From the NCBI GenBank assembly GCA_041397645.1, contig JAWKWE010000008.1, positions 28,394 through 92,393 on the forward strand: DNA of 64,000 nt, in the 5' to 3' direction. The notes beneath the pieces are model-generated. The model did no database searches, was not told the DNA's origin, and worked only from the letters and a program-made list of their open reading frames with translations. The translations under genes and the position numbers were made by a program. Origin of the DNA: Hyphomicrobiaceae bacterium. Its GTDB lineage: Bacteria > Pseudomonadota > Alphaproteobacteria > Rhizobiales > Hyphomicrobiaceae. Of the stretch, positions 19,041 through 64,000 are shown in pieces (the first letter of the stretch is position 1; every line of letters begins with the position of its first letter).

Positions 19041-19084
19041 ATCGTTTAATTTGCGTCTGGACATTGAAAGCACAAGTGCGATAA

Positions 19085-22216: not shown

Positions 22217-22274
22217 CCAAGGAGGGGGCAATTCCTCATGACGCCGAGGGGGCAGTTTTCCATGGCGCGCGACA
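22217..22274 (-). repeat. IS21 terminal inverted repeat (istA side)
   Basis: Reverse complement reads TGTCGCGCGCCATGGAAAACTGCCCCCT...GTCATGAGGAATTGCCCCCTCCTTGG and aligns with the other end. Confidence 0.9.
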
Positions 22275-22279
22275 CCGAC
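22275..22279 (+). repeat. IS21 target-site duplication, right copy (CCGAC)
   Basis: Matches 19964-19968. Confidence 0.85.
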
Positions 22280-22302
22280 ACGCCATATCGGATGAAATTT
22301 GT

Positions 22303-32712: not shown

Positions 32713-32724
32713 GTGCGCCAGACC

Positions 32725-37961: not shown

Positions 37962-38440
37962 GCTGGGTCCCGCGGTTTCTGGTCATCGAAAAAGCTTTTC
38001 TCGCCTCGTGTCAAAGCGAAGGTAGCAGCGCCCCGTGCAACTTCGTCGCCCTTGTCATCATCAAACCAAATGACGCCGGAGTTGAAAGCAATATGGCGAG
38101 TCTGGTGGTAGCATTTGGCGCGCACCAGCACATCAGCGCGCGATTGTGCTGGCCTGAGGTAATCCACGCGCAAGTCAAGCGTGGCCATGGTACTGATGTC
38201 GTCGACTTCAATGAAATTGACGATTCCAAATACGCTATCCAGTAGCGCAGTCAGTACTCCGCCATGGAGAAGGGTCGGCGGCTCGTCAATACAGAAAATG
38301 GGGTTAAACGGCATGCGGACTGTCACGCCGTCAGGCCCGAGCCCCTCGATCCGAAGGTTCATCTGAGTAATGAGACCTTTTGCCCTCGTGATCCAGAGAG
38401 TGCTTATTTGCTCAAAGCGTTGCTGATCTTTGAGGAGCAT
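37958..38440 (-). CDS. PaaI-family hotdog thioesterase
   Basis: LHGGVLTALLD and ATLDLRVDYLRPA; ATGA overlap with its partner. Confidence 0.87.
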   Translation of the reverse strand: MLLKDQQRFEQISTLWITRAKGLITQMNLRIEGLGPDGVTVRMPFNPIFCIDEPPTLLHGGVLTALLDSVFGIVNFIEVDDISTMATLDLRVDYLRPAQSRADVLVRAKCYHQTRHIAFNSGVIWFDDDKGDEVARGAATFALTRGEKSFFDDQKPRDPA

Positions 38441-41197: not shown

Positions 41198-41208
41198 GGG
41201 TTGCTACC

Positions 41209-42006
41209 ATGACCCTAGGCATGGAAAAGACCATCAGCGTCGACGTGAATGCCTTGGGGGTGGCGACCCTGACGCTCAACCGTGCAGAAAAGCACAATGC
41301 GATCAATGGAGAGCTGATCGCTGACCTGGGTGCAGCAGTTCAGTCTCTGGCGGGCGACCCAGCCGTTCGTGTCGTAGTGTTGACGGGGGCTGGCAACAGC
41401 TTTTGCGCGGGAGGCGACTTCAATTGGTTCGCGTCGAATGTGGAAAAGACTCGTGCTGAGCGAGTGGCAGAGAGCGCGTCGTTGGCCCATTTGCTGCGTG
41501 GGCTCGATAGCTTGCCCAAGCCGTTGATTGGACGGATCAATGGTCCGGCCTATGGCGGTGGCGTCGGCCTGATTTCAGTGTGCGACTATACGATCGGAGT
41601 CGAAGGTTCAAAATTCGGACTTACGGAGGTCCGACTGGGTCTGCTGCCCGCCACTATCTCACCCTACGTCGTCGCAAGGATCGGAGCGGCCGCCTCGCGC
41701 GAGACGATGCTCTCGGGGGCGCTGTTCGATTGTGCGCGTGCCAGGCGCATCGGCCTTTTGACAGAGGTCGTGGCTCCCGGAGAGCTAGACAATGCGGTTG
41801 AGCGCATTGTCAATGCACATCTTCAGGCCGCTCCGGGTGCAGTAGCGGACACCAAGCGGCTCATTGCGTATGTCGCGCGTCACGAACTCGATGCCAACAT
41901 GATCTACACCGCTGACCGACTGGCCGACGCCTGGGAGACTGAAGAGGGAGTTGAAGGCATCAGTTGTTTTTTGAATAGGGGCACACCCTCATGGCGCGTG
42001 AAATGA
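41209..42006 (+). CDS. Methylglutaconyl-CoA hydratase-like crotonase (LiuC/AtuE type)
   Basis: NRAEKHNA, FCAGGD, GGGVGLISVCD and FGLTEVRLGLLPATISPYV. Confidence 0.83.
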   Translation: MTLGMEKTISVDVNALGVATLTLNRAEKHNAINGELIADLGAAVQSLAGDPAVRVVVLTGAGNSFCAGGDFNWFASNVEKTRAERVAESASLAHLLRGLDSLPKPLIGRINGPAYGGGVGLISVCDYTIGVEGSKFGLTEVRLGLLPATISPYVVARIGAAASRETMLSGALFDCARARRIGLLTEVVAPGELDNAVERIVNAHLQAAPGAVADTKRLIAYVARHELDANMIYTADRLADAWETEEGVEGISCFLNRGTPSWRVK

Positions 42007-44018: not shown

Positions 44019-45184
44019 ATACCGGTCATGAGCAAACGAAATCGACCGCTTTTCCGTTCGACGAAGACATAGAAATGATCCGCGTTCAGCTGCGGCGGTT
44101 CATCGAGACCGAAGTCATTCCGGCGGCCGACGCGTGGGAGGAAAAAGGCGTGGTACCTCGCGAAGTCCTGCGCGATATGGGTAAGCTTGGCGTGTTGGGA
44201 ATGCGCTACGATCTCGAATATGGCGGTGCCGAGCTCGACACGATGGCGAGCGTGATGCTGGCCGAGGAACTGGGGCGCTCCACCTTCGGTGGATTTTCGG
44301 CGACGGTTCTGGTCCATACCGACATGGCGTCGCCACATTTGGAGAATGCCGGGACGCCCGAGCAAAAGGCGCGTTGGATGCCCGCTATCACCAGCGGTGA
44401 GAAGGTAGCCGCGGTGGCCGTCACCGAGCCGGACGCGGGATCGGACGTCGCGGGTATGCGTACTCGTGCGGTGAAAAAGGGATCCGATTGGGTGTTGAAC
44501 GGCACCAAGATGTTCATCACCAACGGCGTGTACGCCGATCTGTATTTTGTGGCCGCCAAGACTGATCAGGAGGCGAAGGGCTCCCGCGGGATCACAATGT
44601 TCGCCGTCGAGAAAGGCGCACCCGGCTTTTCGGTAAGTCGAGCGCTGAAGAAAACGGGATGGCTGTGTTCGGACACAGCCGAACTGGTTTTCGAGAATGT
44701 TCACGTGCCCGCTGAAAACGTGCTCGGTGAAGTCAATCGAGGTTTCTATGCAGTGATGAAAAATTTCCAAAACGAAAGGATTGTGCTGGGCACACTAGCG
44801 GTTGCCGAAGCGCAGACAGCTCTGAACTTGACAGTTGCTTACGTTAAGCAACGGAAGGCGTTCGGCGGCGTGCTGTGGGACAAGCAGGCTGTCCGCCAAC
44901 GCCTGGCTAATTGCCAGGCCCAGATCGAAGCGGGGCGTCAATTAGCTTATCACGCTGCCCGACTGGACTGCGAAGGTCATGACTGTGTGCGGGAAGTTTC
45001 AATGGTCAAGGCGTACTGCGGTGAGCTGGTGAATCGGGTTCTCTACGACTGCATTCAATTCCACGGGGGGATGGGTTACATGCGCGAGATGGCGGTAGAG
45101 CGGATGTCGCGCGACGCCCGAATTCATGCCATTGGAGGCGGTGCAAGCGAGGTCATGCTGGAAGAGGTTGCTAAACGAATGTAG
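44015..45184 (+). CDS. Acyl-CoA dehydrogenase (LCAD/AtuD-like clade)
   Basis: VHTDMASPHL, VTEPDAGSDVAG, NGTKMFITNG, FQNERI and IGGGASEVM. Confidence 0.9.
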   Translation: MNTGHEQTKSTAFPFDEDIEMIRVQLRRFIETEVIPAADAWEEKGVVPREVLRDMGKLGVLGMRYDLEYGGAELDTMASVMLAEELGRSTFGGFSATVLVHTDMASPHLENAGTPEQKARWMPAITSGEKVAAVAVTEPDAGSDVAGMRTRAVKKGSDWVLNGTKMFITNGVYADLYFVAAKTDQEAKGSRGITMFAVEKGAPGFSVSRALKKTGWLCSDTAELVFENVHVPAENVLGEVNRGFYAVMKNFQNERIVLGTLAVAEAQTALNLTVAYVKQRKAFGGVLWDKQAVRQRLANCQAQIEAGRQLAYHAARLDCEGHDCVREVSMVKAYCGELVNRVLYDCIQFHGGMGYMREMAVERMSRDARIHAIGGGASEVMLEEVAKRM

Positions 45185-46411: not shown

Positions 46412-48058
46412 TCATGCCAAGATGAGCTCGCTATATCCGCCCTCGGCGACCGCATTGGCCTTCTTGCGAAAGGCCGGCGCACTACCGCTGTAGCGGGCTA
46501 CAACCCGCTTTTGCTTGCCCTCGATATTCTGGTTAATGCCGGTCATCCAGCTATCCACCTCGTTGGACAGCAAGCCCTCTCCGGTCTTCAGCACGAAATT
46601 TGTCCATTCCTCGACCGCTTCGTCGCGGGGAACCGCGAAAGTATAGCCGTGCTCGCGGAGAAACCGGATTAGCTCGGCTACCCAAAGAACATTGTACTCG
46701 GCCGAGCGGGGAATGTTGCCGAGGGCAGAATGCGGTCCGATGCACATGAACATATTCGGGAATTCCGCCACCATCATTCCAAGGAAGGTCTCAAGCGCCT
46801 GTCGCCATTTCTCCTTGAGCCTCCTGCCGCCGAGACCACAGATATCGATGCGGTCAAAACTGCCTGTGATCGCATCGAAGCCGGTCGCATATACGATCAT
46901 ATCGAAAGCCAAGCTACGGTCCGCGAGTTCGATCCCCGTCGGCGTGATGCGTCGGATCGGGTTATGGAGAATGCTGATCAGTTCCACGTTTGCGCGGTTG
47001 AAAACCTCGTAATAGCCGGATTCCTGTGGTACCCGTCGCGTTCCGAACCCGTGATCCTTGGGGATCAGCAGGTCGGCGACTTTGGGATCATGCACGCGTT
47101 CACGGATTTTTCTGGCGACGAATTTTGACACTTCCTCGTTCGCGCGGCGGTCGGTCATCATATCCTTGAAGCCGCCGACCCACATCGAAAATCCGGGCGT
47201 CTGATATTGCTTCTCCCAAAACGCCTCCCGCTCCTCGGGTGACAGCTCGAATGTGGTGCGGCCATCCGGGGTATGAAGAAATCCAGCCGAAGTCTGGTCG
47301 CATAACGAGAACATCTCGGGGTACCATGCGCGCAACCGCCGCATCTCCTCTCGCGAGATCGGCCGGTTGTGCAGCGGCTTGCACCAGTTGGGACGACGCT
47401 GGAACACCGTCAGCGTCTTGGCGGTCTTGGCGATCTCGGTGATCACCTGCACGCCACTCGCCCCGCTCCCGATCACCGCGACGCGCTTGCCCTCGAATGT
47501 CACCGAATGTTTTGGCCACAATCCTGTGTGGTAGGCCTCGCCGGCAAAACTCTCTCGCCCGGGCACATTCGGATAGGTCGGGGCCGAGAGCGGGCCGACC
47601 GCCGTGACTAAGAAGCGGCAGCTGTGGCGCGAACCGTCCTCGAGGATCACATTCCATAAGCGACTGTCCTCCCGGTAATGGCACGCGGCCACCTTGCTCG
47701 AGAAGCTGATGCTGCGGCGCAGGTCGAGCTTGTCCGCCATATAGTTCAAATAGCGCTCGGTCTCCGGCTGGCCGGCGAAGTGCTCGCTCCAGTCCCACTC
47801 GTCCAAAAGTTCTTGGCTGAACGAGTAAGCGTAGGAGTAGCTTTCACTATCGAAGCGCGCACCTGGATAACGGTTCCAGTACCATGTACCGCCGACGCCG
47901 GTGCCCATTTCGAACAACTTGACGTTCATCCCGAGCCGGTCGCGCAGGCAATGTAGCTGATACAGTCCGGACAGGCCGGCACCAACGATGATGGTGTCCC
48001 AGTCCAGAGCCGCTACGGGTTCGGGACGGGACAGGCTGGGGATCGTCTCGGCTTCCAT
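46412..48058 (-). CDS. Type I Baeyer-Villiger monooxygenase
   Basis: GAGLSG, GGTWYWNRYPGARFD, fingerprint FAGEAYHTGLW, GSGASG, FGTRR and ATGF. Confidence 0.93.
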   Translation of the reverse strand: MEAETIPSLSRPEPVAALDWDTIIVGAGLSGLYQLHCLRDRLGMNVKLFEMGTGVGGTWYWNRYPGARFDSESYSYAYSFSQELLDEWDWSEHFAGQPETERYLNYMADKLDLRRSISFSSKVAACHYREDSRLWNVILEDGSRHSCRFLVTAVGPLSAPTYPNVPGRESFAGEAYHTGLWPKHSVTFEGKRVAVIGSGASGVQVITEIAKTAKTLTVFQRRPNWCKPLHNRPISREEMRRLRAWYPEMFSLCDQTSAGFLHTPDGRTTFELSPEEREAFWEKQYQTPGFSMWVGGFKDMMTDRRANEEVSKFVARKIRERVHDPKVADLLIPKDHGFGTRRVPQESGYYEVFNRANVELISILHNPIRRITPTGIELADRSLAFDMIVYATGFDAITGSFDRIDICGLGGRRLKEKWRQALETFLGMMVAEFPNMFMCIGPHSALGNIPRSAEYNVLWVAELIRFLREHGYTFAVPRDEAVEEWTNFVLKTGEGLLSNEVDSWMTGINQNIEGKQKRVVARYSGSAPAFRKKANAVAEGGYSELILA

Positions 48059-50337: not shown

Positions 50338-50373
50338 TCAGGTTTGCGAGCCGCTAATGCGGATCGAAAGGGT

Positions 50374-51183
50374 ATGACGGAAAAGTGCATGGCAAAAGAG
50401 TTCTGCGAAGCGGTGCCGATCCTACAATGTACCGGCGTTGAACGTCGCTTCGGCGGTCTAATTGCTGTGACCGGAGTCGATTTGAGCGTTTATCGCGGCG
50501 AGATCTTCGGTCTTGTCGGGCCAAACGGTAGCGGCAAGACCACGCTGACAAACGCCATAACCGGCTTTTATCCGCCCAACAAGGGGACGATCAAGCTAGA
50601 CGGCAAGGACATTACAGGCACGGCGCCCCACAAGGTGGCCGGATTGGGCGTCGCTCGCACATTTCAGAATCTGGCTCTGTTCAATGGCATGAGTGTGCTC
50701 GACAACATCTTGCTTGGCCGACACGTCCACATGCGCCCCGGCGTGATTCGCACGGCGCTCTATTGGTGGTTGGCGCGTCCGGATGAAATGCGAAACCGTG
50801 AAATCGTGGAGGAGGTGGTTGAGTTTTTGCAACTCGAAAGCGTCCGTGATGACCTTGTCGATGGCATTCCGATCGGAATGAAGAAGCGTGTCGAGCTTGC
50901 ACGCGCGTTGGTGGCGGAGCCGCGCCTTCTGATCCTCGATGAGCCGATGGCTGGAATGAACCAGGAGGAGAAGGAGTATATGGCAAGGTTCATTCTCGAT
51001 GCGCGCGCGGAGCGCGGCGTGAGCGTTTTGTTGATCGAACACAGCATGGATGTGATTACCGGCATATGTGATCGCGTGCTGGCATTGAACTACGGAGAAA
51101 TGATCGCAACGGGCAAACCAAGGGAGGTTGTCAAGGATCAGCGAGTCATCGAAGCCTATATTGGTGTCGGTCATGCGGCATGA
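50374..51183 (+). CDS. ABC transporter ATP-binding protein (LivG-like)
   Basis: GPNGSGKTT, RTFQN, LARAL, LDEPMAG and IEHSM. Start 50374 or 50389. Confidence 0.92.
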   Translation: MTEKCMAKEFCEAVPILQCTGVERRFGGLIAVTGVDLSVYRGEIFGLVGPNGSGKTTLTNAITGFYPPNKGTIKLDGKDITGTAPHKVAGLGVARTFQNLALFNGMSVLDNILLGRHVHMRPGVIRTALYWWLARPDEMRNREIVEEVVEFLQLESVRDDLVDGIPIGMKKRVELARALVAEPRLLILDEPMAGMNQEEKEYMARFILDARAERGVSVLLIEHSMDVITGICDRVLALNYGEMIATGKPREVVKDQRVIEAYIGVGHAA

Positions 51184-51190
51184 AAAAGTG

Positions 51191-53098
51191 ATGGGTATGC
51201 AAGCAAGTGCCGCAGACGATACCTTGGCGCGCCTTCTAGCTTACAACGCCGCCCAGCATGGCGATAAGATCGCGATGCGGGAAAAGGATCGCGGCATTTG
51301 GAAGGAGATGACATGGTCCGAGTATTTCGGTGAGGTGCTGGTTTGCGCGGCTGGTTTGGACGCTCTCGGAGTTCGGTCGGGCGACGCCGTCATGATCCTT
51401 GGCGACAACCGCGCGCGCCTTTATGCGGGCATGACGGCATCGTCGATGCTGGGAGCATATGCGATGCCAGCCTATCCGGGGACGACACTGGACGAATTGC
51501 GCCACTTCGTCGGTGAAGTGAAGGTTGTGGCGGCGCTCGCGGAAGACCAGGAGCAGGTCGACAAATTTCTCGATTTGCGGGAGGATGGCAGCGCGATCCA
51601 ATATATCGTCTACGAGGACAAGAGGGGCCTTAACACTTATGACGCGCCGGGGCTCCTGTCGTGGGAGGACTTTCAGGACAAAGGTAGGACAAATCTCAAG
51701 TCAAATCCGGAGCTGCGGGATGGCTTAGTCGATCGTGCTATGCCGGACGATCCTGCGATATTCCTGCATTCGTCGGGCACGACCGGTAAACCAAAGGGGG
51801 TCGTGCTCAGCCACAGAAATGTCGTCGCCGCAGCTCGCAATGCCCATGCGGGCGGGGCGTTCTGCCACGGTGAAGAGGTTCTCGCCTATTTGCCGATGGC
51901 ATGGGTCGGAGATTTTGCCCTGACGGTTGCTGCCGCAATCGCTTTTCGCTTTACCGTCAATGTACCGGAAAGGCAGGAAACGGTTTTGCGTGACATGCGC
52001 GAGATCGCGCCCAGCCTTTATCTAGCTGCTCCGCGCAGCTGGGACAACTTACTAACCTCCATTCAGGTGGGAATCGAGAACTCCACTCCGTTGAAGAAAT
52101 GGCTCTACCACTTTTTTACGGACAGAGCGGTTGCCTCGGAAAGGCGAAAGCTCGATGGGAAAAAGCCTGGCCGTCTGGAATGGCTGGCCCGGTTGCTGGG
52201 CGAGCGCATTGTCTTCGGGCCCGTGAAAGATTTGTACGGTCTCAGCAGATTGAAGAGCGCGTTCACGGGTGGCGAAGCCATTGGGGAGGATACGTTTGTT
52301 TTCTACCGTGCGCTGGGGATCAAGTTGCGACAGCTTTATGGCCAGACCGAAAATGCAGCCTTCAATGCCATTCAGGCGCCCGATGAAGTCAAGCTACATA
52401 CCGTAGGCCGACCGCTTCCTGGCGTTCAGGTAAAGGTGACGGACGCGGGTGAAATACTGCTTAAGGCAGAAAGCGTGTTTCGCGGGTACCACAACAATCC
52501 TTCGGCAACCACGGAAGCGCTCAAAGACGGTTGGCTGCACACCGGCGATGCCGGATATCTGGAGAACGACGGCCACCTCGTCGTGCTGGGACGCGTTTCC
52601 GAAGTTGTCCATACCAAAAACGGCGAACGCTACGTCCCGAATTACATCGAGAACCGGCTGAAGTTCAGCCCGTACATCAAAGACGCGGCCGTATTCGGAG
52701 CCGGCCGGGATGAATTGACGGCCATTGTTTGCATCGACCTGGAGGCAGCCGGGCATTGGGCCGAAACCAACGCCGTGCCCTATGTCTCATACGCGGACCT
52801 GTCGCAACGGTCGGAGATTTCCGAGTTGCTCCGCGATGCGTTTCACCGGGTCAACAAAGCGCTTCCAGAAGCGCTGAAACTGCATCGATTCGTCAGCCTC
52901 CACAAAGAATTCGATCCGGATGATGGTGAAATCACGCGCACCCGCAAGCTCCGCCGCGCAGTCGTCGAAGAGCGGTACGAGCCGGTTATTGCTGCGCTTT
53001 ACGATGGATCGAAACAGATACATGTGAAAGCCGCGGTGAGGTACGAGAGCGGCGATGTCGGCCTCGTGGAACGCACGCTGGCCATCCGGGAGGTCTGA
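51191..53098 (+). CDS. Long-chain acyl-CoA synthetase embedded in the ABC operon
   Basis: HSSGTTGKPKG, YLPMAWVGD, YGQTE, WLHTGDAG and ITRTRKLRR. Start uncertain (51173/51191/51197). Confidence 0.88.
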   Translation: MGMQASAADDTLARLLAYNAAQHGDKIAMREKDRGIWKEMTWSEYFGEVLVCAAGLDALGVRSGDAVMILGDNRARLYAGMTASSMLGAYAMPAYPGTTLDELRHFVGEVKVVAALAEDQEQVDKFLDLREDGSAIQYIVYEDKRGLNTYDAPGLLSWEDFQDKGRTNLKSNPELRDGLVDRAMPDDPAIFLHSSGTTGKPKGVVLSHRNVVAAARNAHAGGAFCHGEEVLAYLPMAWVGDFALTVAAAIAFRFTVNVPERQETVLRDMREIAPSLYLAAPRSWDNLLTSIQVGIENSTPLKKWLYHFFTDRAVASERRKLDGKKPGRLEWLARLLGERIVFGPVKDLYGLSRLKSAFTGGEAIGEDTFVFYRALGIKLRQLYGQTENAAFNAIQAPDEVKLHTVGRPLPGVQVKVTDAGEILLKAESVFRGYHNNPSATTEALKDGWLHTGDAGYLENDGHLVVLGRVSEVVHTKNGERYVPNYIENRLKFSPYIKDAAVFGAGRDELTAIVCIDLEAAGHWAETNAVPYVSYADLSQRSEISELLRDAFHRVNKALPEALKLHRFVSLHKEFDPDDGEITRTRKLRRAVVEERYEPVIAALYDGSKQIHVKAAVRYESGDVGLVERTLAIREV

Positions 53099-53986
53099 AT
53101 GGACATCGCATTTCTCAGCGAGCTTGGTGTAAATGGTGCATTGACCGGATTGCTCTACTCGCTTTTCGCACTTGGGCTTGTGCTGATCTACAAATCGTCG
53201 TCGGTTCCCAATCTTGCTCAGGGCGCATTGACGATGTTGGCCGCATACGCGGTGCTGGCCCTTTCCCGGCAGCTGGGGTTCCCATTGTGGCTGGCCATAG
53301 CTGCCGCAACGATCATCATGTTTCTGGCCGGCTTTGCCGTGGAGAAGGTGGCGCTGCGGCGGATGGCAGGGCGTCCGATCGTCATGATCCTGATGATGAC
53401 GCTCGGTATCGATATCTTTATACGCGGTACGACCTTGGCTGTGTGGGGCGGCACCTCCCGTTCGATGGAGCTGGGCATCAGCTACGATCCTTTGTTTCTG
53501 GGGCCGCTACTGCTGAGCCGGATAAATCTGGCCGGAGCTGGCGTCGCGCTCGCACTCTTTGTGGGACTTTTCCTGTTCTTCCGAACGCGCCTTGGAATCC
53601 GATTACGTGCAATCTCGGACGATTATGTCGCTTCTTGGTCGATCGGGATCTCCGTCGAGCGCGGCGTAGCTTTGTCATGGGGTATGGCTTCCGTGATTGC
53701 GGTTGCGTCAGGTGTGATTTGGGGAGAGATCCAGGGCGTCGACCAATCGCTTTCGCAGCTTCTGCTGAAGGGACTTACAGTGGCCGTCCTGGGCGGTCTC
53801 GACAGCATTGCCGGCGCGGTTCTTGCCGGAATTTTCCTTGGGATCGTTGAGAACGTAGGCTCCTCCTATCTCGATTCAGTAGTTGGAGGAGGTAGCCGTG
53901 ATCTGATCGTTGCTGCCGTGCTGATCTTCACCGTCGTGTTGCGTCCGCATGGACTCTTCGGCCGCCACGACATCGAAAGAGTGTGA
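53099..53986 (+). CDS. ABC transporter permease (LivH-like)
   Basis: Hydrophobic; GLVLIYKSS..PNLAQG, RTRLGIRLRA and VLGGLDS. Confidence 0.9.
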   Translation: MDIAFLSELGVNGALTGLLYSLFALGLVLIYKSSSVPNLAQGALTMLAAYAVLALSRQLGFPLWLAIAAATIIMFLAGFAVEKVALRRMAGRPIVMILMMTLGIDIFIRGTTLAVWGGTSRSMELGISYDPLFLGPLLLSRINLAGAGVALALFVGLFLFFRTRLGIRLRAISDDYVASWSIGISVERGVALSWGMASVIAVASGVIWGEIQGVDQSLSQLLLKGLTVAVLGGLDSIAGAVLAGIFLGIVENVGSSYLDSVVGGGSRDLIVAAVLIFTVVLRPHGLFGRHDIERV

Positions 53987-53989
53987 CGT

Positions 53990-55063
53990 ATGTTCTATCC
54001 TCTCGCGGGTGTCCGTCATGGGAGCTACAAGTCGGACAGCAAGCTGTTCCCGGTGCCGACGGACCGGACCCTGCTTATTCTCCTTACTATTGTTGCCATC
54101 GCTGCACCGTTCCTTCTGAGTTCGTTGTATTTGAACAGCTACGTTCAACCGTGGCTGATCTGGACGGCGGCGGCTCTCGGTCTCAATCTAGTGACGGGTT
54201 GGGCAGGGCAACTGCATCTGGGATACGCTGCTACTATGGCGGTGGGAGCCTATGCGGCCGTACACGCGGCTAGGTTCGGCACTCCCTGGGAGCTCGCTCT
54301 TCTGATCGGCGGCCTTGCCGCATCGTTGATAGGAAGCCTGTTTGCCTTCGCGGCCCTGCGCGTGAAAGGGCTTTATCTTGCGATCGTCACGCTTGCCATG
54401 CAGTTCGTAATGGACTGGGTGCTAAACCATTCGCCCGCGATTTCTGGCGGCTCTCACGCCTCGCTTCAATCCCCTCGTTTTGCCCTCTTTGGGCAGGAAA
54501 TCGCTTCAGACAAAGGACTATATTATGTGGCACTCGGATGGTGTGCGTTGGTTACCATTTTCATGATGAACACGCGCCGAACCGCTTTGGGACGGGCCTT
54601 GGTTGCAGTACGTGAAAAGGACTATGCGGCTGCAATCCTTGGCGTGAACAGCTTCTACTACAAGCTGATTGCCTTTTCGGCTTCCTCGTTCATCGGTGGG
54701 ATCGGCGGAGCCATTCTCGTTGCGACGTTCTTTTTCCTGGCTGCGCCTGAGCAATTCTCGGTAAACGTTTCGATCCAGGTGCTTGCCATGATCATCGTCG
54801 GAGGGCTCGGCAGCATCATCGGCACGTATTTTGGAGTGGCGTTGATTCTCCTTATGCCAGGAATTGCGAACGAAATCCTTGCTAAGGCAGCGGGCCTGTT
54901 TGGACTTCAACTCGGCAATGAAACGCTCGCTCATATCCCGACGGCCGTCTACGGCGCTTTGATCATCATTTTTCTGCTGGTTGAGCCTTTAGGCCTCGGA
55001 AAGCTCTATGCGAACATCAGGGACTATTTCCTGGTCTGGCCCTTCGACCAGTTCAAGAAATAG
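53990..55063 (+). CDS. ABC transporter permease (LivM-like)
   Basis: GLNLVTGWAGQLHLG, RVKGLYLAIVTL, GRALVAVRE and IIVGGLGS. Confidence 0.9.
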   Translation: MFYPLAGVRHGSYKSDSKLFPVPTDRTLLILLTIVAIAAPFLLSSLYLNSYVQPWLIWTAAALGLNLVTGWAGQLHLGYAATMAVGAYAAVHAARFGTPWELALLIGGLAASLIGSLFAFAALRVKGLYLAIVTLAMQFVMDWVLNHSPAISGGSHASLQSPRFALFGQEIASDKGLYYVALGWCALVTIFMMNTRRTALGRALVAVREKDYAAAILGVNSFYYKLIAFSASSFIGGIGGAILVATFFFLAAPEQFSVNVSIQVLAMIIVGGLGSIIGTYFGVALILLMPGIANEILAKAAGLFGLQLGNETLAHIPTAVYGALIIIFLLVEPLGLGKLYANIRDYFLVWPFDQFKK

Positions 55064-55071
55064 GACCCGCC

Positions 55072-55890
55072 ATGAATCCGCAAGAGATCCACAAAGATAG
55101 CCCGATACTGTCGATGAACAGTGTGGAGGTGCTTTACGATTCGGTCATGCTTGCCATCAAGGGAGTATCGATCGAGGTGCCGCACGGAGGGGTGGTTGCG
55201 CTTCTTGGATCCAACGGAGCCGGGAAGAGTACGACATTGAAAGCAATAAGTGGCCTTCTGGCCGCGGAACGCGGGAAGGTGAGCCGAGGTGAGATCCGCT
55301 TTGACGGCAAAGCAATTGGCGACCGTCCGCCTCAGGAGCGGGTCGATCTCGGGATTTGCCATGTGATCGAGGGACGTAGGGTTTTCGAACATCTGACGCC
55401 GGATGAGAACCTCGAAGCGGCGGCTCCAACGTCGATGTCGAGGGCGCGGGTCGCTTCGGATAAAGCGCGCATTTACGACTACTTTCCACGCCTGGCCGAG
55501 CGAAAGTCTGCGCTTGCCGGATATCTTTCGGGCGGTGAACAGCAAATGCTCGCAATCGGGCGGGCCTTGATGACGCAACCGCGTTTACTGATGCTGGACG
55601 AGCCTAGCTTGGGCCTAGCTCCGTTTCTGGTGGCCGAGATTTTCGAAATCATCAAACGCATTAATCGCGATCACGGCCTGTCCGTCCTGCTTGTCGAACA
55701 AAACGCGCTTGCGGCTCTCGATATCGTCTCGCATGGCTATCTGATCGAGAATGGGCGCGTTGTCATGCATGACACGGCGGAAAGGCTGAAGGCAAACTCC
55801 GATATTCAGGAGTTCTACCTGGGCGGTAGCGAAGCCAAGAGTTTTCACGACATCAAGCATTATCGCAGGCGCAAGCGCTGGCTCAGCTGA
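55072..55890 (+). CDS. ABC transporter ATP-binding protein (LivF-like)
   Basis: GSNGAGKST, LSGGEQQMLAIGRAL, LDEPSLGLAP and VEQN. Confidence 0.93.
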   Translation: MNPQEIHKDSPILSMNSVEVLYDSVMLAIKGVSIEVPHGGVVALLGSNGAGKSTTLKAISGLLAAERGKVSRGEIRFDGKAIGDRPPQERVDLGICHVIEGRRVFEHLTPDENLEAAAPTSMSRARVASDKARIYDYFPRLAERKSALAGYLSGGEQQMLAIGRALMTQPRLLMLDEPSLGLAPFLVAEIFEIIKRINRDHGLSVLLVEQNALAALDIVSHGYLIENGRVVMHDTAERLKANSDIQEFYLGGSEAKSFHDIKHYRRRKRWLS

Positions 55891-55935
55891 TCAGGAACGT
55901 CCAGACCGGCATTTGTGAAGGGAGGAGAGCTCATC

Positions 55936-57180
55936 ATGGGATTTTCGAGGTTGCTTGCAAGTGCGGCAATCGCCTGCGTCGTGGTGCTTTCGATAGCGCC
56001 TCAGGCCAGTGCCGTACAACCGCTCAAGCTTGGCGTTTGCTACGATTTGAGCAAGGCCTACACTTTCGCCACGCCCCAGGTATCGCAGGCGGCACAGGAT
56101 CTGGTCGCGCTAACCAATCTCAAGGGTGGGATCGCCGGTGCTCCGATCGAAGTCATCGTGCGAGACCATGGCAATGAGCCGCAACGCGGCATCGAGTGCT
56201 ACGAAAAGCTCAAACGAGAAGGTGTCTTCATCTTCGACACACTGTCGACCCCCGTTTCGCTCGCCGTGTTGCCGCGAGTTATGCAGGACAAGAACATCCT
56301 CATCCAGGCATTGGTCGGCCGCGGAGATGCCGTGGACGGCGCCGTGTTTGAGTGGGTTTTCCCGCTGGGGCCCACTTACTGGGGGCAGGTCGCCAACGAT
56401 GTTGCCTACTTGAAACAGGTGCATGGCGGCGATCTGCGCGGGGTGAAAGTCGGATTCGTCTATCTCGACTATCCGTTCGGTCAGGAGCCGATTCCAATTC
56501 TCGAGACACTGGCCAAGGTGGAAGGCTTCGAGTTGAAGCTCTACCCGGTGCCGCTCCCTGGCAACGATCAGGCCGGCATCTGGACTCAAGTTCGCCGAGA
56601 CCAGCCCGACCACATCATCAGCTGGCTGTTGGGAGGGGCGCATGTCGTGGCATCGAAGGAGATGAAGCGCAACGGCATCCCAATGGACAAGTATATCTCG
56701 GTCAATTGGCTGAACGAAGTGGATATTGCCAATATCGGCCCCGAGGCAGCCAAGGGGTTGAAGCGGGGCACCAACGTTGCAGGTGGGCAGGATGTTCCGC
56801 TGATCCAGGAGATCATCGCTGAGCTTTACAAGAAGGGCAAAGGCAGCGGGCCGGAGAAAAACCTCAAGGATGTCTACTACAACACTGGACTGGCCATGTA
56901 CTCCATGATCCTCGAAGGCGCTCGCCAAGCTGCCAAGTTGCAGGGCGATCCGATCACTGCCGCGGCAATGCGTGAAGGGCTCCAACACATCACAAACTAT
57001 GATGCCAACGGGCTGATGGCACCGGTAACGGTGACATCGAACGATCATGGTGGCGGCGGCAAGACCCGCATCGAGATGTGGGATGGTCAGAGATGGGTGC
57101 CGCAGACAGAATGGAGGGCGGCCTATACGGATCTGATCTGGGAAGTGGTGAGGAAGAGTTCCTCCAAATATCGAAACTAG
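55936..57180 (+). CDS. ABC substrate-binding protein (type I periplasmic, fatty/dicarboxylic-acid-like clade), copy 1
   Basis: Sec-type signal peptide; DHGNEPQRGIECYEKLK, YLDYPFG and DHGGGG. Confidence 0.88.
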   Translation: MGFSRLLASAAIACVVVLSIAPQASAVQPLKLGVCYDLSKAYTFATPQVSQAAQDLVALTNLKGGIAGAPIEVIVRDHGNEPQRGIECYEKLKREGVFIFDTLSTPVSLAVLPRVMQDKNILIQALVGRGDAVDGAVFEWVFPLGPTYWGQVANDVAYLKQVHGGDLRGVKVGFVYLDYPFGQEPIPILETLAKVEGFELKLYPVPLPGNDQAGIWTQVRRDQPDHIISWLLGGAHVVASKEMKRNGIPMDKYISVNWLNEVDIANIGPEAAKGLKRGTNVAGGQDVPLIQEIIAELYKKGKGSGPEKNLKDVYYNTGLAMYSMILEGARQAAKLQGDPITAAAMREGLQHITNYDANGLMAPVTVTSNDHGGGGKTRIEMWDGQRWVPQTEWRAAYTDLIWEVVRKSSSKYRN

Positions 57181-57190
57181 CCTTTGAGGG

Positions 57191-57235
57191 CTCCGCTCGG
57201 CGCAGCGCCGGTGCAAGGCTTTGCGGATAGCGGAG
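57191..57235 (+). other. Candidate intercistronic stem-loop after SBP1
   Basis: CTCCGCT...AGCGGAG outer stem with an inner CGGCG-CAG-CGCCG hairpin; no U-tract. Confidence 0.35.
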
Positions 57236-57271
57236 ATGTAGGATTGGAAATTTGGGACTAACAGACGGGAG

Positions 57272-58525
57272 ATGAGAATGTCGGTCGAAAAAGCAATAAA
57301 ATGGCTCGTGGTCGCCGCTGCCATCAGCGTCGCAGGATGCGCGCAGGCTTTAGCTCAGGAGACCTTGAAATTCGGTGCGTGCTTTGATCTCAGTAAATCC
57401 TATACCTTCATCTCACCGCAGGTGGCGCAAGCCGCGCAGGATCTTGCCGCGCTTACGAACATGAAGGGCGGCATCGATGGGCACAAGATCGAGATCGTGG
57501 TTCAGGACCACGGCAATGAGCCCCAGCGCGGCATTGAATGCTACGAAAAGCTTAAGCGTGAAGGCGTCTTCGTCTTTAACATGCTGTCGACCCCCGTGTC
57601 GATCGCGGTGCTGCCGCGGATCATGAAGGAGAAGAATGTCCTTATCCAGTCGTTGGTCGGGCGCGGTGACGCCATCGACGGTTCGATCTTCACTCAGATC
57701 TTTCCAGTGGGTGCAACTTATTGGGGGCAGGCTGCCAACGATATCGCCTATATCAAACAACTGCGCGGCGGCGACATGAAAGGGGCCAAGATCGGATTTA
57801 TCTATCTCGACTATCCTTTTGGTCAGGAGCCGATCGGTATCCTCAAGACTCTCGCCGAACGCGAGGGCTTTGAACTAAAGCTTTATCCTGTACCTTTGCC
57901 CGGCAGCGATCAGACCAGCGTTTGGACACAGGTGCGACGCGACCAGCCTGATTTCATGATCAGCTGGCTGCTGGCCGGAGGACATGTCGTGGCAGCCAAA
58001 GAAATGAAGCGCAACGGCTATCCGATCGAAAAGTACATTTCGGTCAACTGGCTTAACGAGGTGGATATTGCCAATATTGGTCCCGAGGCTGCCAAGGGGA
58101 TCAAGCGTGGAACAAACGTCGTCGGTGGTCAGGATGTTCCGATCATCAGGGAGATGACGGCAGAGCTTTATGCCAAAGGCAAAGGCAGCGGGCCCGAGAA
58201 AAACCTGAAGGACGTGTATTACAATACCGGTTTAGCTATCTATTCGGTCGCTTTCGAGGCTACCCGCAACGCCATCAAACAGGCGGGTTGGCCGGTGACC
58301 GCAGCCTCGATGAAGGGCGGATATGAGAGCATAAAGGACTTCGACGCCAATGGCCTGCTTGCCCCCGTGACTGTAACGGCGGCAGACCATGGCGGCGGGG
58401 GCAAGACGCGGATCGAAATGTGGGACGGCCAGAAGTGGGTGCCGCAGACTGCTTGGTTATCAGCCTATCAGGACCTGATCTGGCAGATCGTGAAGACGAG
58501 TTCATCTGGATTCAAGGTCGAGTAA
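57272..58525 (+). CDS. ABC substrate-binding protein, copy 2 (tandem paralog)
   Basis: Same motifs as copy 1 with long identical stretches and a different signal peptide. Confidence 0.88.
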   Translation: MRMSVEKAIKWLVVAAAISVAGCAQALAQETLKFGACFDLSKSYTFISPQVAQAAQDLAALTNMKGGIDGHKIEIVVQDHGNEPQRGIECYEKLKREGVFVFNMLSTPVSIAVLPRIMKEKNVLIQSLVGRGDAIDGSIFTQIFPVGATYWGQAANDIAYIKQLRGGDMKGAKIGFIYLDYPFGQEPIGILKTLAEREGFELKLYPVPLPGSDQTSVWTQVRRDQPDFMISWLLAGGHVVAAKEMKRNGYPIEKYISVNWLNEVDIANIGPEAAKGIKRGTNVVGGQDVPIIREMTAELYAKGKGSGPEKNLKDVYYNTGLAIYSVAFEATRNAIKQAGWPVTAASMKGGYESIKDFDANGLLAPVTVTAADHGGGGKTRIEMWDGQKWVPQTAWLSAYQDLIWQIVKTSSSGFKVE

Positions 58526-60816: not shown

Positions 60817-61689
60817 TCAGGTGAACCGCAGTTGCACCTCCATGGCGATGGTCCCGCCCGGCGTCATTGCCCACAGCTCGGCGCCCGCGCCGCCGTCGAC
60901 GGGGCGTCCGGCGACGTCGAACGGCGTGGTATCGAACAAAGGTGCACGCGCGCGTTGCGTGAATGAGGCGATCGTCCTGCTCGCATTGTTGTCCCGGACG
61001 AGATCGATGAGGCATTGCTGCGAATAAGGGCCGTGCACCACCAGCCCGGGGTAACCCTCCACGGTTGTCGCGTAAGTCCGATCGTAGTGAATACGATGCG
61101 GGTTGAAGGTCACAGCAGAATAGCGGAACAGCGATACCGGTTCCGTTGTGATCTGCCGCGTCCACGGTAGGTCGGCGGGCGGCGTATCTCGCTTCGGTAT
61201 CCCGCTTTTCTCCCCCGGCTTCACGGCGTCGCGAAACACGGTGTAACTCTCCTCCACGATCGCGAGGCCGCGTGGCGAGAATATGCGCCGCGTTTGCGTG
61301 GCAAAGATGAGAGGGCCCGTACTGCCGGAACGCAACGTCATGTCTGTCAGTTCCGTCTCGCGCTTGAGCGCGTCCCCCACCAGCAGCGGATGATGAAACG
61401 TCAGGCTCGTGCCCGCGTACATGCGCCGCGGGAACGGCACATCGGGAATGACGCCCCCCGACGTTGGCAGGCCATCCTCGCCCAGCGTCGCCCTGCGCGC
61501 GAAGGAATGGAAATAGGCGAGGTGCCATCCCGGCGGAATCGCTTCGCCCCTGGTGGGTACCTGATCGTCTCGGTCGAATGCAGCCACGAGCCCGAAGAGC
61601 GGCGCTCGCGTGGCTTCGTCTTCTTCCACGATCTTCGCGCCTATGTGCTTGCGCAAACTGTCAATGTCGATTTCGGCAGCCATCGTCAT
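60817..61689 (-). CDS. Double-hotdog (R)-hydratase, mesaconyl-C4/itaconyl-CoA-hydratase-like
   Basis: PPGWHLAYF, GEDG, PRRMYAG, LFRYSAVTFNPHRIHYD, GYPGLVVHGP and RARAPLF. Confidence 0.85.
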   Translation of the reverse strand: MTMAAEIDIDSLRKHIGAKIVEEDEATRAPLFGLVAAFDRDDQVPTRGEAIPPGWHLAYFHSFARRATLGEDGLPTSGGVIPDVPFPRRMYAGTSLTFHHPLLVGDALKRETELTDMTLRSGSTGPLIFATQTRRIFSPRGLAIVEESYTVFRDAVKPGEKSGIPKRDTPPADLPWTRQITTEPVSLFRYSAVTFNPHRIHYDRTYATTVEGYPGLVVHGPYSQQCLIDLVRDNNASRTIASFTQRARAPLFDTTPFDVAGRPVDGGAGAELWAMTPGGTIAMEVQLRFT

Positions 61690-61713
61690 TCTCCCAGGCT
61701 GGGTGCAGGCATG

Positions 61714-62139
61714 TCAGCTCGCGGGCGCTGCAAGAACGAATCCGGGCAGTGTGAGGCCGGGTTTCGCTTTCTCGAAAACGAGGCGGACGGGCATGCCGAT
61801 CTCGAGCCGCGTGTCCGCCGGCGCATGCAGTCGCCCCAGCATGCGCACGCCTTCCTCCAGATCGACCGTCACCAGCGTGCAGGGCAGGTCGGACCTGTAA
61901 GCGTCGTGAAACGGATGATGCGTAATCGTCCAGCTGTGAATCGTACCTTGCTCTAATGCCTCGACCCACCGGGTTTCGAAGGAATGGCATGCATCGCATA
62001 CCGGCCGGGGATAATGCCGGACCTTTCCGCAGCCCGCGCATTGCTGAAGCAGCAACTTGCCTTCGTTGAGGCCCTCCCAATAGGGCATAGTGTCTGGTGT
62101 CGGTTCGGGCACGAGCCTCGAATATGTGTCGCCAATCAT
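61714..62139 (-). CDS. DUF35 Zn-ribbon/OB-fold protein
   Basis: PYWEGL, QQCAGC..HYPRPVCDAC, VDLEEGVRM and IGMPVRLVF. Confidence 0.9.
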   Translation of the reverse strand: MIGDTYSRLVPEPTPDTMPYWEGLNEGKLLLQQCAGCGKVRHYPRPVCDACHSFETRWVEALEQGTIHSWTITHHPFHDAYRSDLPCTLVTVDLEEGVRMLGRLHAPADTRLEIGMPVRLVFEKAKPGLTLPGFVLAAPAS

Positions 62140-62143
62140 ACTC

Positions 62144-63295
62144 TCAACCTCTCCTCATGATCGCGACCGACCCGTCGCCCATGTCGCCGTAACCGGAGAC
62201 GAGACCCAGTTCAGCGCCGTTTACTTGGGCTTTTCCGGCACTCCCCCTGAGCTGCTTTACGAGCTCGACCACATGATTCATCCCAACCATGTGCGCTTGG
62301 GACAGCAGACCGCCATGCGTGTTGACCGGGAGCCTGCCGCCAAGCCTTATGGCGCCGCTCTCGACAAACGGCCCGCCCTCGCCCTTCCTGCAGAAGCCGA
62401 TATCTTCCAGCTGGCAGAGCACGACATACGTGAAACAATCGTAGATCTCGGCCACTTGAATTTCCCGAGGCGTAACGCCCGCCATCGCAAACGCCTTGGG
62501 TGCGGCTTTGGCGATGCCCAAACGCGTCATGTCGGGACGCTGGGTGATCGAACTCGGAGAGTCGGGATGTCCTTCGGCGACGCCCATGATGAGGATCGGC
62601 TTCTGGCGCAAATCTCTGCTGCGCTCGGCAGCGCTGACGACGATTGCAGCACCGCCATCGCTCTCGAGACTGCAGTCCAGCAACCGCAGCGGATCGGAGA
62701 TCATGCGCGAATTCTGATGATCTTCGATCGTGACAGGCTTCGTCATCATCGCATTGCCGTTCAGGGCCGCGTTGTGGCGTGTCGACACGGCGATCTCGCC
62801 GAGTTGGCGGCTTGTCGTGCCGTAGAGCTCCATATGCCGCCGTGCCATCGGGGCGTAGAGCTGCGCCGGCGCGATTGCCCCGATTGGCATCTCGAATTCG
62901 CCGACAACCTTGAACTGCGGCATCTGCTGTACGCGTGTGCCGATACGGCCTGCAGACGAGCCGTTCCGTCCGATCGGCAGCAGGACATGATTGCAAAGAC
63001 CCGCACCGATCGCCAGGAGTGCGGCTTGAATTCCGGCCACGCAACTCGCGCCTCCGAGAGGCGTTGTGGCTGAAAAACGAAGATCCTCGATACCGAAGTT
63101 AGTCACGAAATCCTCGGCGACGACAGCTGAATTCGAATAGGGAATGATCCCGTCGATGTCTCTTGGCGACAATCCGGCGTCCTCGATGGCCTTCAGCGAG
63201 GCTTCGAGCTGGAGAGCGAGCACGCTTTTTCCGGAGTTGCGGCTGTAGGCCGTCTCGCCGACGCCGGTTATGGCGACCCGTTCCTTCAATACCAT
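62144..63295 (-). CDS. SCP2/Ltp2-type thiolase-fold protein
   Basis: AITGVGET, GGASC, PLRLLDCSLESDGG, IYDCFT and NTHGGLLSQAH; GAGGAG RBS before ATG 63295. Confidence 0.88.
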   Translation of the reverse strand: MVLKERVAITGVGETAYSRNSGKSVLALQLEASLKAIEDAGLSPRDIDGIIPYSNSAVVAEDFVTNFGIEDLRFSATTPLGGASCVAGIQAALLAIGAGLCNHVLLPIGRNGSSAGRIGTRVQQMPQFKVVGEFEMPIGAIAPAQLYAPMARRHMELYGTTSRQLGEIAVSTRHNAALNGNAMMTKPVTIEDHQNSRMISDPLRLLDCSLESDGGAAIVVSAAERSRDLRQKPILIMGVAEGHPDSPSSITQRPDMTRLGIAKAAPKAFAMAGVTPREIQVAEIYDCFTYVVLCQLEDIGFCRKGEGGPFVESGAIRLGGRLPVNTHGGLLSQAHMVGMNHVVELVKQLRGSAGKAQVNGAELGLVSGYGDMGDGSVAIMRRG

Positions 63296-63331
63296 CTGTA
63301 GTCTCCTCGAATGCACTGCGGGGCAGTTGTC

Positions 63332-63670
63332 CTAGCGACAGGCGAAGCTCGGTGCGATTCTATTCGCAAAAAGCTCCAGCGAGCCGAAATCCTGGCCGCG
63401 CTCGTGAATGCTTCGCGGAATGAGCCGGAAACACTCGTTCACCCGGAATACGCTTATAGCGGCGAACTCATTGGCGACCTCAAAGCCTGTCGATCTGCAG
63501 GTGGTGCTCGAGTATCCGAAACCGGTATAACCGGCTTGTTCAGCGACTTGGACGTACCCCGCGATCTCTTGCAACATGCGCTGATAGGGTTCGGGCCGCT
63601 TGCCGGCCATGCCAGCTTTGAGCTCCTGCGGCCGACCAATCGTGCAGTACATGCATAGATTGAAATCCAC
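63332..63670 (-). pseudogene. Internally deleted luciferase-like (LLM-class) flavin monooxygenase
   Basis: AAGGAG RBS and GTG; LLM N-terminus (MYCTIGR..AGMAG..YQRML..AEQAGY), hidden out-of-frame EHHLQID at 63509-63489, joined to a C-terminal SLELFANRIAPSF; only 112 codons. Confidence 0.7.
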
Positions 63671-63714
63671 GGAGCGAACTCCTTGACGCCGGTCGTGGGA
63701 AGTAACAATATGAA

Positions 63715-63730
63715 CCGAACAAACGTTAGA
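63715..63730. promoter_or_regulatory. Operator copy 7, CCGAAC-AAAC-GTTAGA
   Basis: Overlaps the -10 of minus-strand TTGACT (63751-63746)-N17-TAACGT (63728-63723), in the gap before a divergent ACAD. Confidence 0.78.
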
Positions 63731-63901
63731 ATTGTTGCGCCATGAAGTCAAATATCAGGCTATCGGCGGCCCGCACAGTCGTGAGTTGAGGCGTGGTCAG
63801 GATCGCCAGTTCTTGCGCGATGTAGATAAACGAGGAGCTAGGTTTGATGCAGCGGATCCCGCTGGCTTGGCACAAAGTAGCGCGCATGGAGGAGAACGCT
63901 C

Positions 63902-64000
63902 ATGGATTTGAGCTATGGTCCCAAATATCGAGCGCTGCAGCAGGAGGTTCGCGGCTTCGTGAAAAGCTACGGCCATTTGTCGCCGCGAACGGGCGGCGGC
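63902..64000 (+). CDS. Probable acyl-CoA dehydrogenase, N-terminus only (runs off the window)
   Basis: GGAGGAG RBS; MDLSYGPKYRALQQEVRGFV resembles the MDLxxxxExxAFRxEVRxF ACAD start. Confidence 0.6.
   Translation, partial: MDLSYGPKYRALQQEVRGFVKSYGHLSPRTGGG

Follow-up and report, generated by a model that had tools for sequence, protein, structure and literature searches.

In a 64,000-nucleotide stretch of DNA from a Hyphomicrobiaceae bacterium (GenBank assembly GCA_041397645.1, contig JAWKWE010000008.1, positions 28,394 to 92,393; the whole stretch is referred to here as the window), a thiolase-fold protein that has lost the nucleophilic Cys is encoded together with a stand-alone DUF35 protein and a double-hotdog (R)-hydratase. 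We propose, with a probability of roughly 0.6, that the thiolase-fold and DUF35 proteins constitute an acyl-CoA retro-aldolase of the Ltp2/Sal kind that works without a Cys nucleophile, acting in a dehydrogenase-hydratase-aldolase module outside steroid catabolism, and that this module most likely releases a ketone and an acyl-CoA from branched, fatty-acid-like CoA esters. A first-pass annotation of the sequence had suggested a non-steroid module of the retro-aldolase type at this site, and that suggestion is supported by the absence of the nucleophile, an invariant Tyr/Cys dyad, the DUF35 and hydratase neighbours, an adjacent pair of acyl-CoA dehydrogenase (ACAD) genes and the lack of steroid ring genes in the window.

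Open reading frame (ORF) coordinates and Pfam matches place three co-directional genes on the minus strand exactly at 60817-63295, just as the annotation had them. The thiolase-fold gene (62144..63295; 383 amino acids (aa); Pfam Thiolase_C_1, E 9e-52) is separated by 4 nt, stop to start, from the DUF35 gene (61714..62139; 141 aa; zf-ChsH2, 3e-14, and OB_ChsH2_C, 2e-19), which in turn lies 24 nt from the gene for a single-chain double-hotdog hydratase of the type found in Pseudomonas aeruginosa (PaIch; 60817..61689; 290 aa; FAS1_DH_region and a weak, sub-threshold MaoC match). The thiolase-fold ORF is listed as 62144-63316, from an upstream GTG; we place the true start at the ATG at 63295 (MVLKERV...), because it matches the lengths of relatives, the 120 best of which in the database are virtually all 381-388 aa long and cover 98% of the query. 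A scan for promoters and terminators gave nothing above shuffled expectation, and a search of read runs with the window sequence found no RNA runs, all matches coming from metagenomic DNA (sludge, drinking water and wastewater).

Central to the proposal is the active site of the thiolase-fold protein. We aligned 143 sequences with L-INS-i, comprising about 130 full-length sequences that represent the nearest clusters, six from the orthogroup of the query and five from the PDB, and including two true thiolases (6esq and 7yvy). In this alignment the thiolase segment E-A-A-C-A-S-G pairs with P-L-G-G-A-S-C of the window protein, placing the nucleophilic Cys opposite Gly82, while Cys85 of LGGASC pairs with the Gly of the thiolase C-x-S-G motif. 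The AlphaFold model (predicted local distance difference test score, pLDDT, 93.3) begins a helix at residue 81, with Gly82 in its first turn, at the elbow, and Cys85 one turn further in. Steroid side-chain aldolase CtSal of Comamonas testosteroni also has Gly at the nucleophile position (PMC12329534), and it matches the query column for column. Aligned pairwise by HMMER to 6esq alone, the window protein instead has Cys85 opposite the nucleophile, by way of a 3-residue gap; on the strength of the multiple alignment, the model and that published Gly, we adopt the register in which Gly82 occupies the nucleophile position. Among 88 orthologs (69-100% identical to the query), residue 85 is moreover variable, being Cys in 38, Ala in 25, Pro in 16 and Ser in 7. 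The strings LGGASC, YDCF and NTHGGLLSQAH reported for this protein are each present in it, but the assumption that LGGASC holds the nucleophilic Cys is ruled out by the multiple alignment, the start of the helix in the model and the variation among orthologs. In nearly all of the 143 aligned sequences, the nucleophile column is likewise Gly and the Y-D-x-F motif opens with Tyr.

Four residues are invariant in all 88 orthologs, namely Tyr285 and Cys287 of YDCF, His335 and Cys208. Relative to the HDCF motif of true thiolases, the first His is thus replaced by Tyr285, while Cys287 and His335, the latter belonging to G-H-P in thiolases, are retained. Rolfe et al. (2025; PMC12329534) demonstrated that Tyr302 and Cys304 of the Y-D-C-Y motif are both essential in CtSal, whereas TcLtp2 of Thermomonospora curvata uses the same base, Tyr294 of Y-D-H-F, with Tyr344 as the acid. 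The invariant Tyr285 aligns with Tyr294 of Ltp2, and Tyr285 and Cys287 together match the CtSal pair. The fourth residue of the motif is Phe in place of the Tyr of CtSal, where a Y305F exchange lowered activity only 7.6-fold, and the trypanosomal SCP2-thiolase-like protein (SLP) has the identical Y-D-C-F (both PMC12329534). This pattern therefore identifies a dyad of the Sal/SLP type in the window protein. The Ltp2 strings cited by the annotation (GGGAAC, YDHF and NTHGG..EAY) occur in PDB 6ok1 as aligned, and its statement that the second Ltp2 Tyr is replaced by His also holds: the column that has Tyr344 in Ltp2, Gln352 in CtSal and the His of G-H-P in true thiolases is His335 in 88/88 orthologs. 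This replacement is accounted for if the enzyme is of the Sal type, with Cys as the acid, and not of the Ltp2 type, in which Tyr344 has that role. The further idea, that the chemistry is a new intermediate between those of thiolases and aldolases, did not survive, as LGGASC has its Cys away from the nucleophile position and that Cys is not conserved; the combination Gly/YDCF/His is in fact the commonest in the alignment (27 of 143, compared with 18 for YDCF/Tyr, 11 for YDAF/Tyr and 6 for the Ltp2-type YDHF/Tyr), and hence does not represent a rare transitional state.

Fold and sequence comparisons point in the same direction. In a Foldseek search with the AlphaFold model, the best match was the Ltp2-ChsH2(DUF35) complex (TM-score 0.94, root mean square deviation 1.8 A), followed by 4u4e and Sal-Shy(DUF35), and the archaeal, BbsB and SCP2 thiolases all ranked after these three Cys-less structures. 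By sequence, the PDB matches were led by 4u4e (43.6% identity, E 1e-77), TcLtp2 6ok1 (40.6%) and CtSal 9myr (36.9%), with DUF35-associated true thiolases well behind (about 32%). The protein nevertheless does not belong to the Ltp2 or Sal clades, membership of which is ruled out by NCBIfam cut-offs, identities and phylogeny. It falls below the cut-offs of both nearest NCBIfam models, PRK07855 (345 bits, cut-off 469) and PRK06158, and in a library of 1.84 billion proteins its 50%-identity cluster stands apart, with 555 bits to the representative and at most 401 to the next cluster. In a neighbour-joining tree (100 bootstraps), its orthogroup forms a clade of its own with 99% bootstrap support, apart from TcLtp2, 4u4e and CtSal. 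The deeper nodes of the tree are without support.

The DUF35 protein combines a Cys4 zinc ribbon (C34, C37, C48 and C51) with an OB fold, and its best PDB matches are the DUF35 domains of ChsH2 (6ok1_B, 4e-24) and CtShy (9myr_B, 3e-20). We presume that the aldolase depends on it as an obligatory partner. In C. testosteroni TA441, DUF35 is indispensable for aldolase activity and works when expressed apart from the hydratase (PMC12502768), which makes a free-standing DUF35 plausible as the partner of an aldolase. The hydratase has only one strong relative in the PDB, itaconyl-CoA hydratase (8khg/8huc; E ~1e-45, residues 22-279, 39% identity), and a block N-x-HRIHYD ... EGYPG-x-V-x-HGP is invariant across 14 hydratases from such trios and PaIch. 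Itaconyl-CoA hydratase hydrates its substrate to citramalyl-CoA, a tertiary alcohol. A Pfam scan of the larger ORFs of the window revealed no lyase of the CitE/Ccl type and no Ict next to the hydratase.

It is useful to set the module against the systems it most resembles. TcLtp2-ChsH2(DUF35) (PDB 6ok1) removes the C17 propionyl side chain of steroids and belongs to the igr-type set ChsE1-ChsE2/ChsH1-ChsH2/Ltp2. The thiolase fold, the Gly at the nucleophile position, the Tyr of Y-D-x-F, the NTHGG motif and a DUF35 partner, here a predicted one, are common to both, as is the series of a two-subunit ACAD, a MaoC-type hydratase and an aldolase. In the window protein, however, Tyr344 is replaced by His335 and His296 by Cys287, the DUF35 is a separate 141-aa gene product and not the C-terminal domain of a hydratase as in ChsH2, and the hydratase is a single 290-aa chain of the Ich type in contrast to the ChsH1/ChsH2 heteromer. 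CtSal-CtShy(DUF35) (PDB 9myr), the aldolase for bile-acid C5 side chains (PMC12329534), shares with the window protein the Tyr and Cys of Y-D-C-x, the Gly at the nucleophile position and, as predicted here, the DUF35 partner; it differs in having YDCY for YDCF and Gln352 for His335, in belonging to another clade, in a Cys3His1 instead of a Cys4 zinc site in DUF35 and in the fusion of DUF35 to the hydratase. Both steroid systems differ from ours in gene context. The closest solved sequence, 4u4e, is a structural-genomics entry from Sphaerobacter thermophilus ('putative thiolase') with no function listed; it resembles the window protein in the Gly at the nucleophile position and in a His that corresponds to His335, but lacks the Cys acid, as it has YDSF in place of YDCF, and lies in a different clade.

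More distant comparisons are likewise instructive. The SLP of Trypanosoma brucei (TbSLP; PDB 5ab4-5ab7), which has the identical YDCF, has been proposed to be an aldolase by the authors of the CtSal work, who report no DUF35 partner for it (PMC12329534); unlike the window protein it is eukaryotic, and the relationship between the two is remote (E 2.8e-18; about 25% identity when aligned by fold). PaIch shares the single-chain double hotdog of about 280 aa and the conserved block, and its product is a tertiary 3-hydroxyacyl-CoA, although it works with a citramalyl-CoA lyase of the CitE type and not with a thiolase-fold aldolase. DUF35-associated true thiolases also have a free-standing DUF35 gene beside an SCP2-type thiolase-fold gene, but 6esq (about 32% identity) keeps the nucleophilic Cys and H-D-C-F. 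The archaeal thiolase 7yvy, equally distant and shown without a DUF35 partner, has the nucleophilic Cys and H-D-A-F, and BbsB is about 25% identical to the query in the fold alignment.

The gene arrangement recurs beyond the window and is not due to chance. A scan of species-representative genomes matched at least 600 stretches, at least 582 of them encoding a relative, and we analysed the best 80 loci, whose carriers are Alpha-, Beta- and Gammaproteobacteria and Methylomirabilota/Rokubacteria. Neighbour counts were taken mainly from a tblastn table and are approximate, because crude ORF calling produced many shadow ORFs in GC-rich loci. The thiolase-fold and DUF35 genes adjoin in every related locus whose contig reaches far enough, and the pair is thus a conserved unit. 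A fused double hotdog lies directly downstream in about 12 of some 83 distinct loci, mostly those with orthologs of at least 81% identity plus one further locus (L044), so the trio recurs in about a dozen distinct genomes but is ruled out as the universal arrangement of the orthogroup. The ACAD pair was counted in about 18 loci and a Baeyer-Villiger monooxygenase (BVMO) in about 13. Beside the pair, independent lineages have recruited three hydratase architectures, a fused double hotdog, a split hotdog and a crotonase, which supports the order of hydratase followed by aldolase.

A number of individual relatives deserve mention in their own right. Six marine Alphaproteobacteria (L033, L043, L052, L072, L077 and L086; approximately 8000-12500 in each locus) carry an orthologous pair, 72-75% identical, amid rpsD, a SpoU methylase gene, a leuA-like gene and cysS; a short-chain dehydrogenase/reductase (SDR) and a MAPEG protein follow in most cases, with no hydratase. 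On plasmid pRZP2 of Rhodococcus sp. ZPP (L088, 7657-11316), a 67%-identical ortholog is preceded by CaiB/BaiF CoA-transferases and stands in the order FAD oxidoreductase, thiolase-fold gene, Zn-ribbon OB-fold gene, crotonase. In the databases, relatives are named 'acetyl-CoA acetyltransferase', 'thiolase family protein' or 'transporter'; the last of these is attached in RefSeq to many relatives of 45-51% identity among the plasmid matches (H2-H8) and looks like a naming error.

Upstream of the trio and divergent from it, the window ends within an ACAD gene (63903..64000, plus strand), of which the first 33 codons, starting MDLSYGPKYRALQQEVRGF..., are present and the rest lies off the window. 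They match the beginning of a 406-aa ACAD in Rhodopseudomonas boonkerdii (L005), and the gene would encode the α-type subunit of a two-gene acyl-CoA dehydrogenase. R. boonkerdii is a cultured species whose ortholog of the thiolase-fold protein is 91% identical, and it has the ACAD pair, the trio and the BVMO complete. A contig from a sludge metagenome (L001), 99.5% identical to window positions 61508-64000, continues beyond the window end with ACADs of 406 and 364 aa, a cytochrome P450, an NMO-family protein and a Y1 transposase. The best PDB matches of the R. boonkerdii proteins are 6wy8_B and 4x28_A for the 406-aa ACAD and 6wy8_A and 4x28_D for the 364-aa ACAD; as 6wy8 (Tcur3483/Tcur3481) and 4x28 (ChsE4/ChsE5) are steroid heterotetramers, each ACAD matches a different subunit. 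A steroid cluster is nevertheless ruled out, since no steroid ring genes (Rieske KshA-, KstD-, Hsa- or Tes-type) were found by Pfam among the real-gene ORFs of at least 180 aa in the window. In the R. boonkerdii locus and in L003, L008, L009 and L015, a 545-aa BVMO follows the hydratase on the same strand, and this trio-adjoining enzyme of relatives has OTEMO (3uov) as its best PDB match (E 6.5e-167). OTEMO is an enzyme of the camphor pathway that oxidises a ketone-bearing CoA ester. The window itself encodes a type I BVMO (46412..48058, minus strand; Pfam FMO-like), a 57% identical paralog of the one directly behind the trio in relatives, and we regard it as a candidate consumer of the ketone product, although its link to the trio is tentative.

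Between the aldolase and ACAD genes, a 139-aa ORF (63332-63751, minus strand) has no Pfam match. Visual inspection suggests a likeness to the N-terminal part of a luciferase-like monooxygenase, with 'EHHLQI' readable only in another frame, as might be expected of a truncated remnant that has undergone a frameshift. In R. boonkerdii the corresponding intergenic region measures just 358 bp.

If the module operates as we propose, the divergently encoded two-subunit ACAD would desaturate a bulky or β-branched acyl-CoA to give a 2,3-double bond, and the Ich-like hydratase would add water at C3, yielding a 3-hydroxyacyl-CoA, probably a tertiary alcohol, that cannot, or need not, be oxidised. The DUF35-bound aldolase would then break the C2-C3 bond, with Tyr285 acting as the base on the 3-OH and Cys287 protonating the acyl-CoA enolate, while His335 probably tunes Cys287 by stabilising its thiolate, as proposed for Gln352 of CtSal (PMC12329534). 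Cleavage would release a carbonyl compound, with a ketone being the likeliest, together with acetyl- or propionyl-CoA, and in close relatives the BVMO encoded behind the trio would turn the ketone into an ester. We infer complex formation, the reaction, the order of its steps and the class of substrate, as well as the tertiary nature of the latter.

Several observations weigh against this scheme and should be noted together. The role we assign to His335 is a guess, because true thiolases use that His to activate the nucleophile, and a tertiary substrate is not demanded by the chemistry, because CtSal acts on a secondary alcohol. The BVMO of the window lies 14 kb from the trio and does not adjoin it. 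Finally, most of the 80 related loci (69-78% identity) have the pair without the double hotdog, the ACAD pair or the BVMO, and in these loci it stands beside an SDR or unrelated housekeeping genes (cysS, rpsD, photolyase and thiE), so that the link to the hydratase may be specific to certain lineages.

We weighed the alternatives in decreasing order of plausibility. A strictly Sal-like retro-aldol reaction, in which a secondary 3-hydroxyacyl-CoA gives an aldehyde and acetyl-CoA, seems unlikely to us. The Tyr and Cys pair is of the type that CtSal employs in cleaving a secondary alcohol at C22, with an aldehyde as product (PMC12329534), and the SDR behind the pair in marine Alphaproteobacteria could use an aldehyde or alcohol; however, the hydratase beside the trio's DUF35 gene is of the PaIch family, which is known to form citramalyl-CoA, a tertiary alcohol, close relatives encode a ketone-using BVMO directly downstream, and no aldehyde dehydrogenase is found beside the trio in the window, the sludge contig, R. 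boonkerdii or L006.

The pair could instead have a general, hydratase-independent role, such as a synthetic condensation of the aldol or Claisen type or a weak decarboxylation like that of TbSLP, with the trio being a lineage-specific juxtaposition. Given the many loci without a hydratase, the pair may have some general function, and its retention at 69-78% identity in many genomes amid housekeeping or unrelated genes fits such a role, as does the fact that TbSLP, which also has YDCF, shows only slow malonyl-CoA decarboxylation (PMC12329534). As an explanation of the trio we consider it rather improbable in view of the tight operon in the window, the three hydratase architectures recurring immediately downstream in independent lineages and the lack of malonyl-CoA decarboxylase activity in CtSal (PMC12329534).

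We attach little weight to a third alternative, by which the substrates would be dicarboxylyl-CoAs resembling those of itaconate or mesaconate, the hydratase forming an alcohol of the citramalyl-CoA type and the aldolase taking the place of citramalyl-CoA lyase to yield acetyl-CoA and a 2-oxo acid. It draws on the relationship of the hydratase to itaconyl-CoA hydratase and on Family III (CaiB/BaiF) CoA-transferases, the type used for itaconate activation, which are encoded near the trio in L006, L020 and L021 and on the Rhodococcus plasmid. An identity of 39% does not fix the substrate, however, and the ACAD pair is of a two-subunit type known for bulky steroid CoA esters, the P450 and BVMO neighbours fit hydrophobic substrates, and the genes around the trio in the window are those of fatty or branched acyl-CoA metabolism. 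Lastly, we dismiss as scarcely credible a genuine Cys-dependent SCP2-type thiolase, BbsB-like or of the archaeal DUF35-bound kind, that thiolyses 3-oxoacyl-CoA with Cys85 as nucleophile: the pairwise alignment to archaeal 6esq, the retained Cys of HDCF and His of G-H-P, and the partnership of DUF35 with true thiolases as well (6esq and 7pxp being among the PDB sequence matches) speak for it, but Gly82 sits at the nucleophile position, more than half of the orthologs, with 69-78% overall identity, have Ala, Pro or Ser instead of Cys85, Tyr stands in place of the first HDCF His throughout, and true thiolases rank under the three Cys-less structures by fold.

Returning to the retro-aldolase reading, a more far-reaching form of it can be offered only tentatively. 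The clade defined by Gly82, YDCF, His335 and a free Cys4 DUF35 would in this form be a family of acyl-CoA retro-aldolases outside steroid metabolism, widespread and uncharacterised, performing, together with a two-subunit ACAD and an Ich-like hydratase, a thiolase-free, 'aldolytic' round of β-oxidation on 3,3-disubstituted substrates and passing the ketone to a BVMO. Candidate substrates may be the ring-attached acetate or propionate side chains of alicyclic and terpenoid acids, or 3-methyl-branched isoprenoid acids, and the clade could encode activities such as (1-hydroxycyclohexan-1-yl)acetyl-CoA lyase (EC 4.1.3.35). To our knowledge that enzyme is known only biochemically, and a literature search found no gene for it. 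Searches on non-steroid members, cyclohexylacetate and DUF35 in combination with Baeyer-Villiger enzymes returned only steroid examples and no characterised member of the clade; a paper on Ambrox puts forward a retro-aldol step on an acyl-CoA without naming a thiolase-fold enzyme.

The wider window, whose closest named relatives are Tardiphaga and R. boonkerdii, is an island of acyl-CoA catabolism from a Nitrobacteraceae-like alphaproteobacterium. By Pfam it contains many ACADs, crotonases, SDRs and acyl-CoA ligases, and in addition to the BVMO it encodes a Liv-type ABC system and a reductase of the old-yellow-enzyme type; no canonical thiolase was found among its ORFs of at least 180 aa. Three sets of biotin carboxylase and carboxyltransferase genes are present (740-4308, 31105-35696 and 39599-45184), for which NCBIfam gave generic names only, apart from the 3-hydroxy-3-methylglutaryl-CoA (HMG-CoA) lyase of the second set, which passes its cut-off. 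The third set has the order carboxyltransferase, enoyl-CoA hydratase, biotin carboxylase-biotin carboxyl carrier protein, ACAD, typical of Liu/Atu clusters, and the hydratase of one set has gamma-carboxygeranoyl-CoA hydratase as its second-best NCBIfam model. The set with HMG-CoA lyase and the set with the gamma-carboxygeranoyl-CoA-hydratase-like gene are both Liu/Atu-like in arrangement. The island seems built for methyl-branched or otherwise blocked acyl-CoAs that are cleaved by lyases and not by thiolysis.

Other features of the window are recorded here as separate observations. An IS21-type element at 20030-22197, encoding an IstB-like ATPase and an integrase with rve and Mu-transposase-C domains, lies in a G+C-rich stretch that has no counterpart elsewhere in the window (0.63-0.66, compared with about 0.57) and abuts the 5' end of a long ORF resembling acetyl-CoA synthetase (22045-24240), in which the ACAS_N match starts only at residue 112. 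Two tandem Peripla_BP_6 paralogs (55915-57180 and 57272-58525; 69.7% identical) close the Liv-type ABC operon (50344-58525), where the gene for a 656-aa AMP-binding enzyme (51128-53098) stands between the ATPase and permease genes. A 466-aa regulator (17673-19073, minus strand) with two TetR_N and two TetR_C matches is a tandem-fused double TetR. At 13350-17676, a second pair of ACAD genes with a 4-nt overlap (369 aa, without a middle-domain match, and 384 aa) may be another two-subunit dehydrogenase module; behind it come genes for a crotonase and for a 405-aa protein of only faint AMP-binding similarity. Two small adjoining ORFs (133 and 160 aa) at 37560-38440 on the minus strand are, by eye, candidate thioesterases of the PaaI/4HBT type.

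Removal of side chains by a retro-aldol reaction of thiolase-fold enzymes has so far been shown only for steroids, by Ltp2 and Sal. What appears to be new here is that the same logic of dehydrogenase, hydratase and retro-aldolase may operate in a separate clade outside steroid catabolism, with the additional features of a free DUF35, a single-chain Ich-like hydratase and, in relatives, a coupled BVMO. If this is true, the clade would offer new ketone-releasing C-C lyases for biocatalysis, and the database names of its relatives would be corrected. Its spread among environmental Alpha-, Beta- and Gammaproteobacteria, Methylomirabilota/Rokubacteria and Rhodococcus suggests a strategy of general use for carbon skeletons on which ordinary β-oxidation is blocked, such as naphthenic acids, terpenoids and branched alkanoates.

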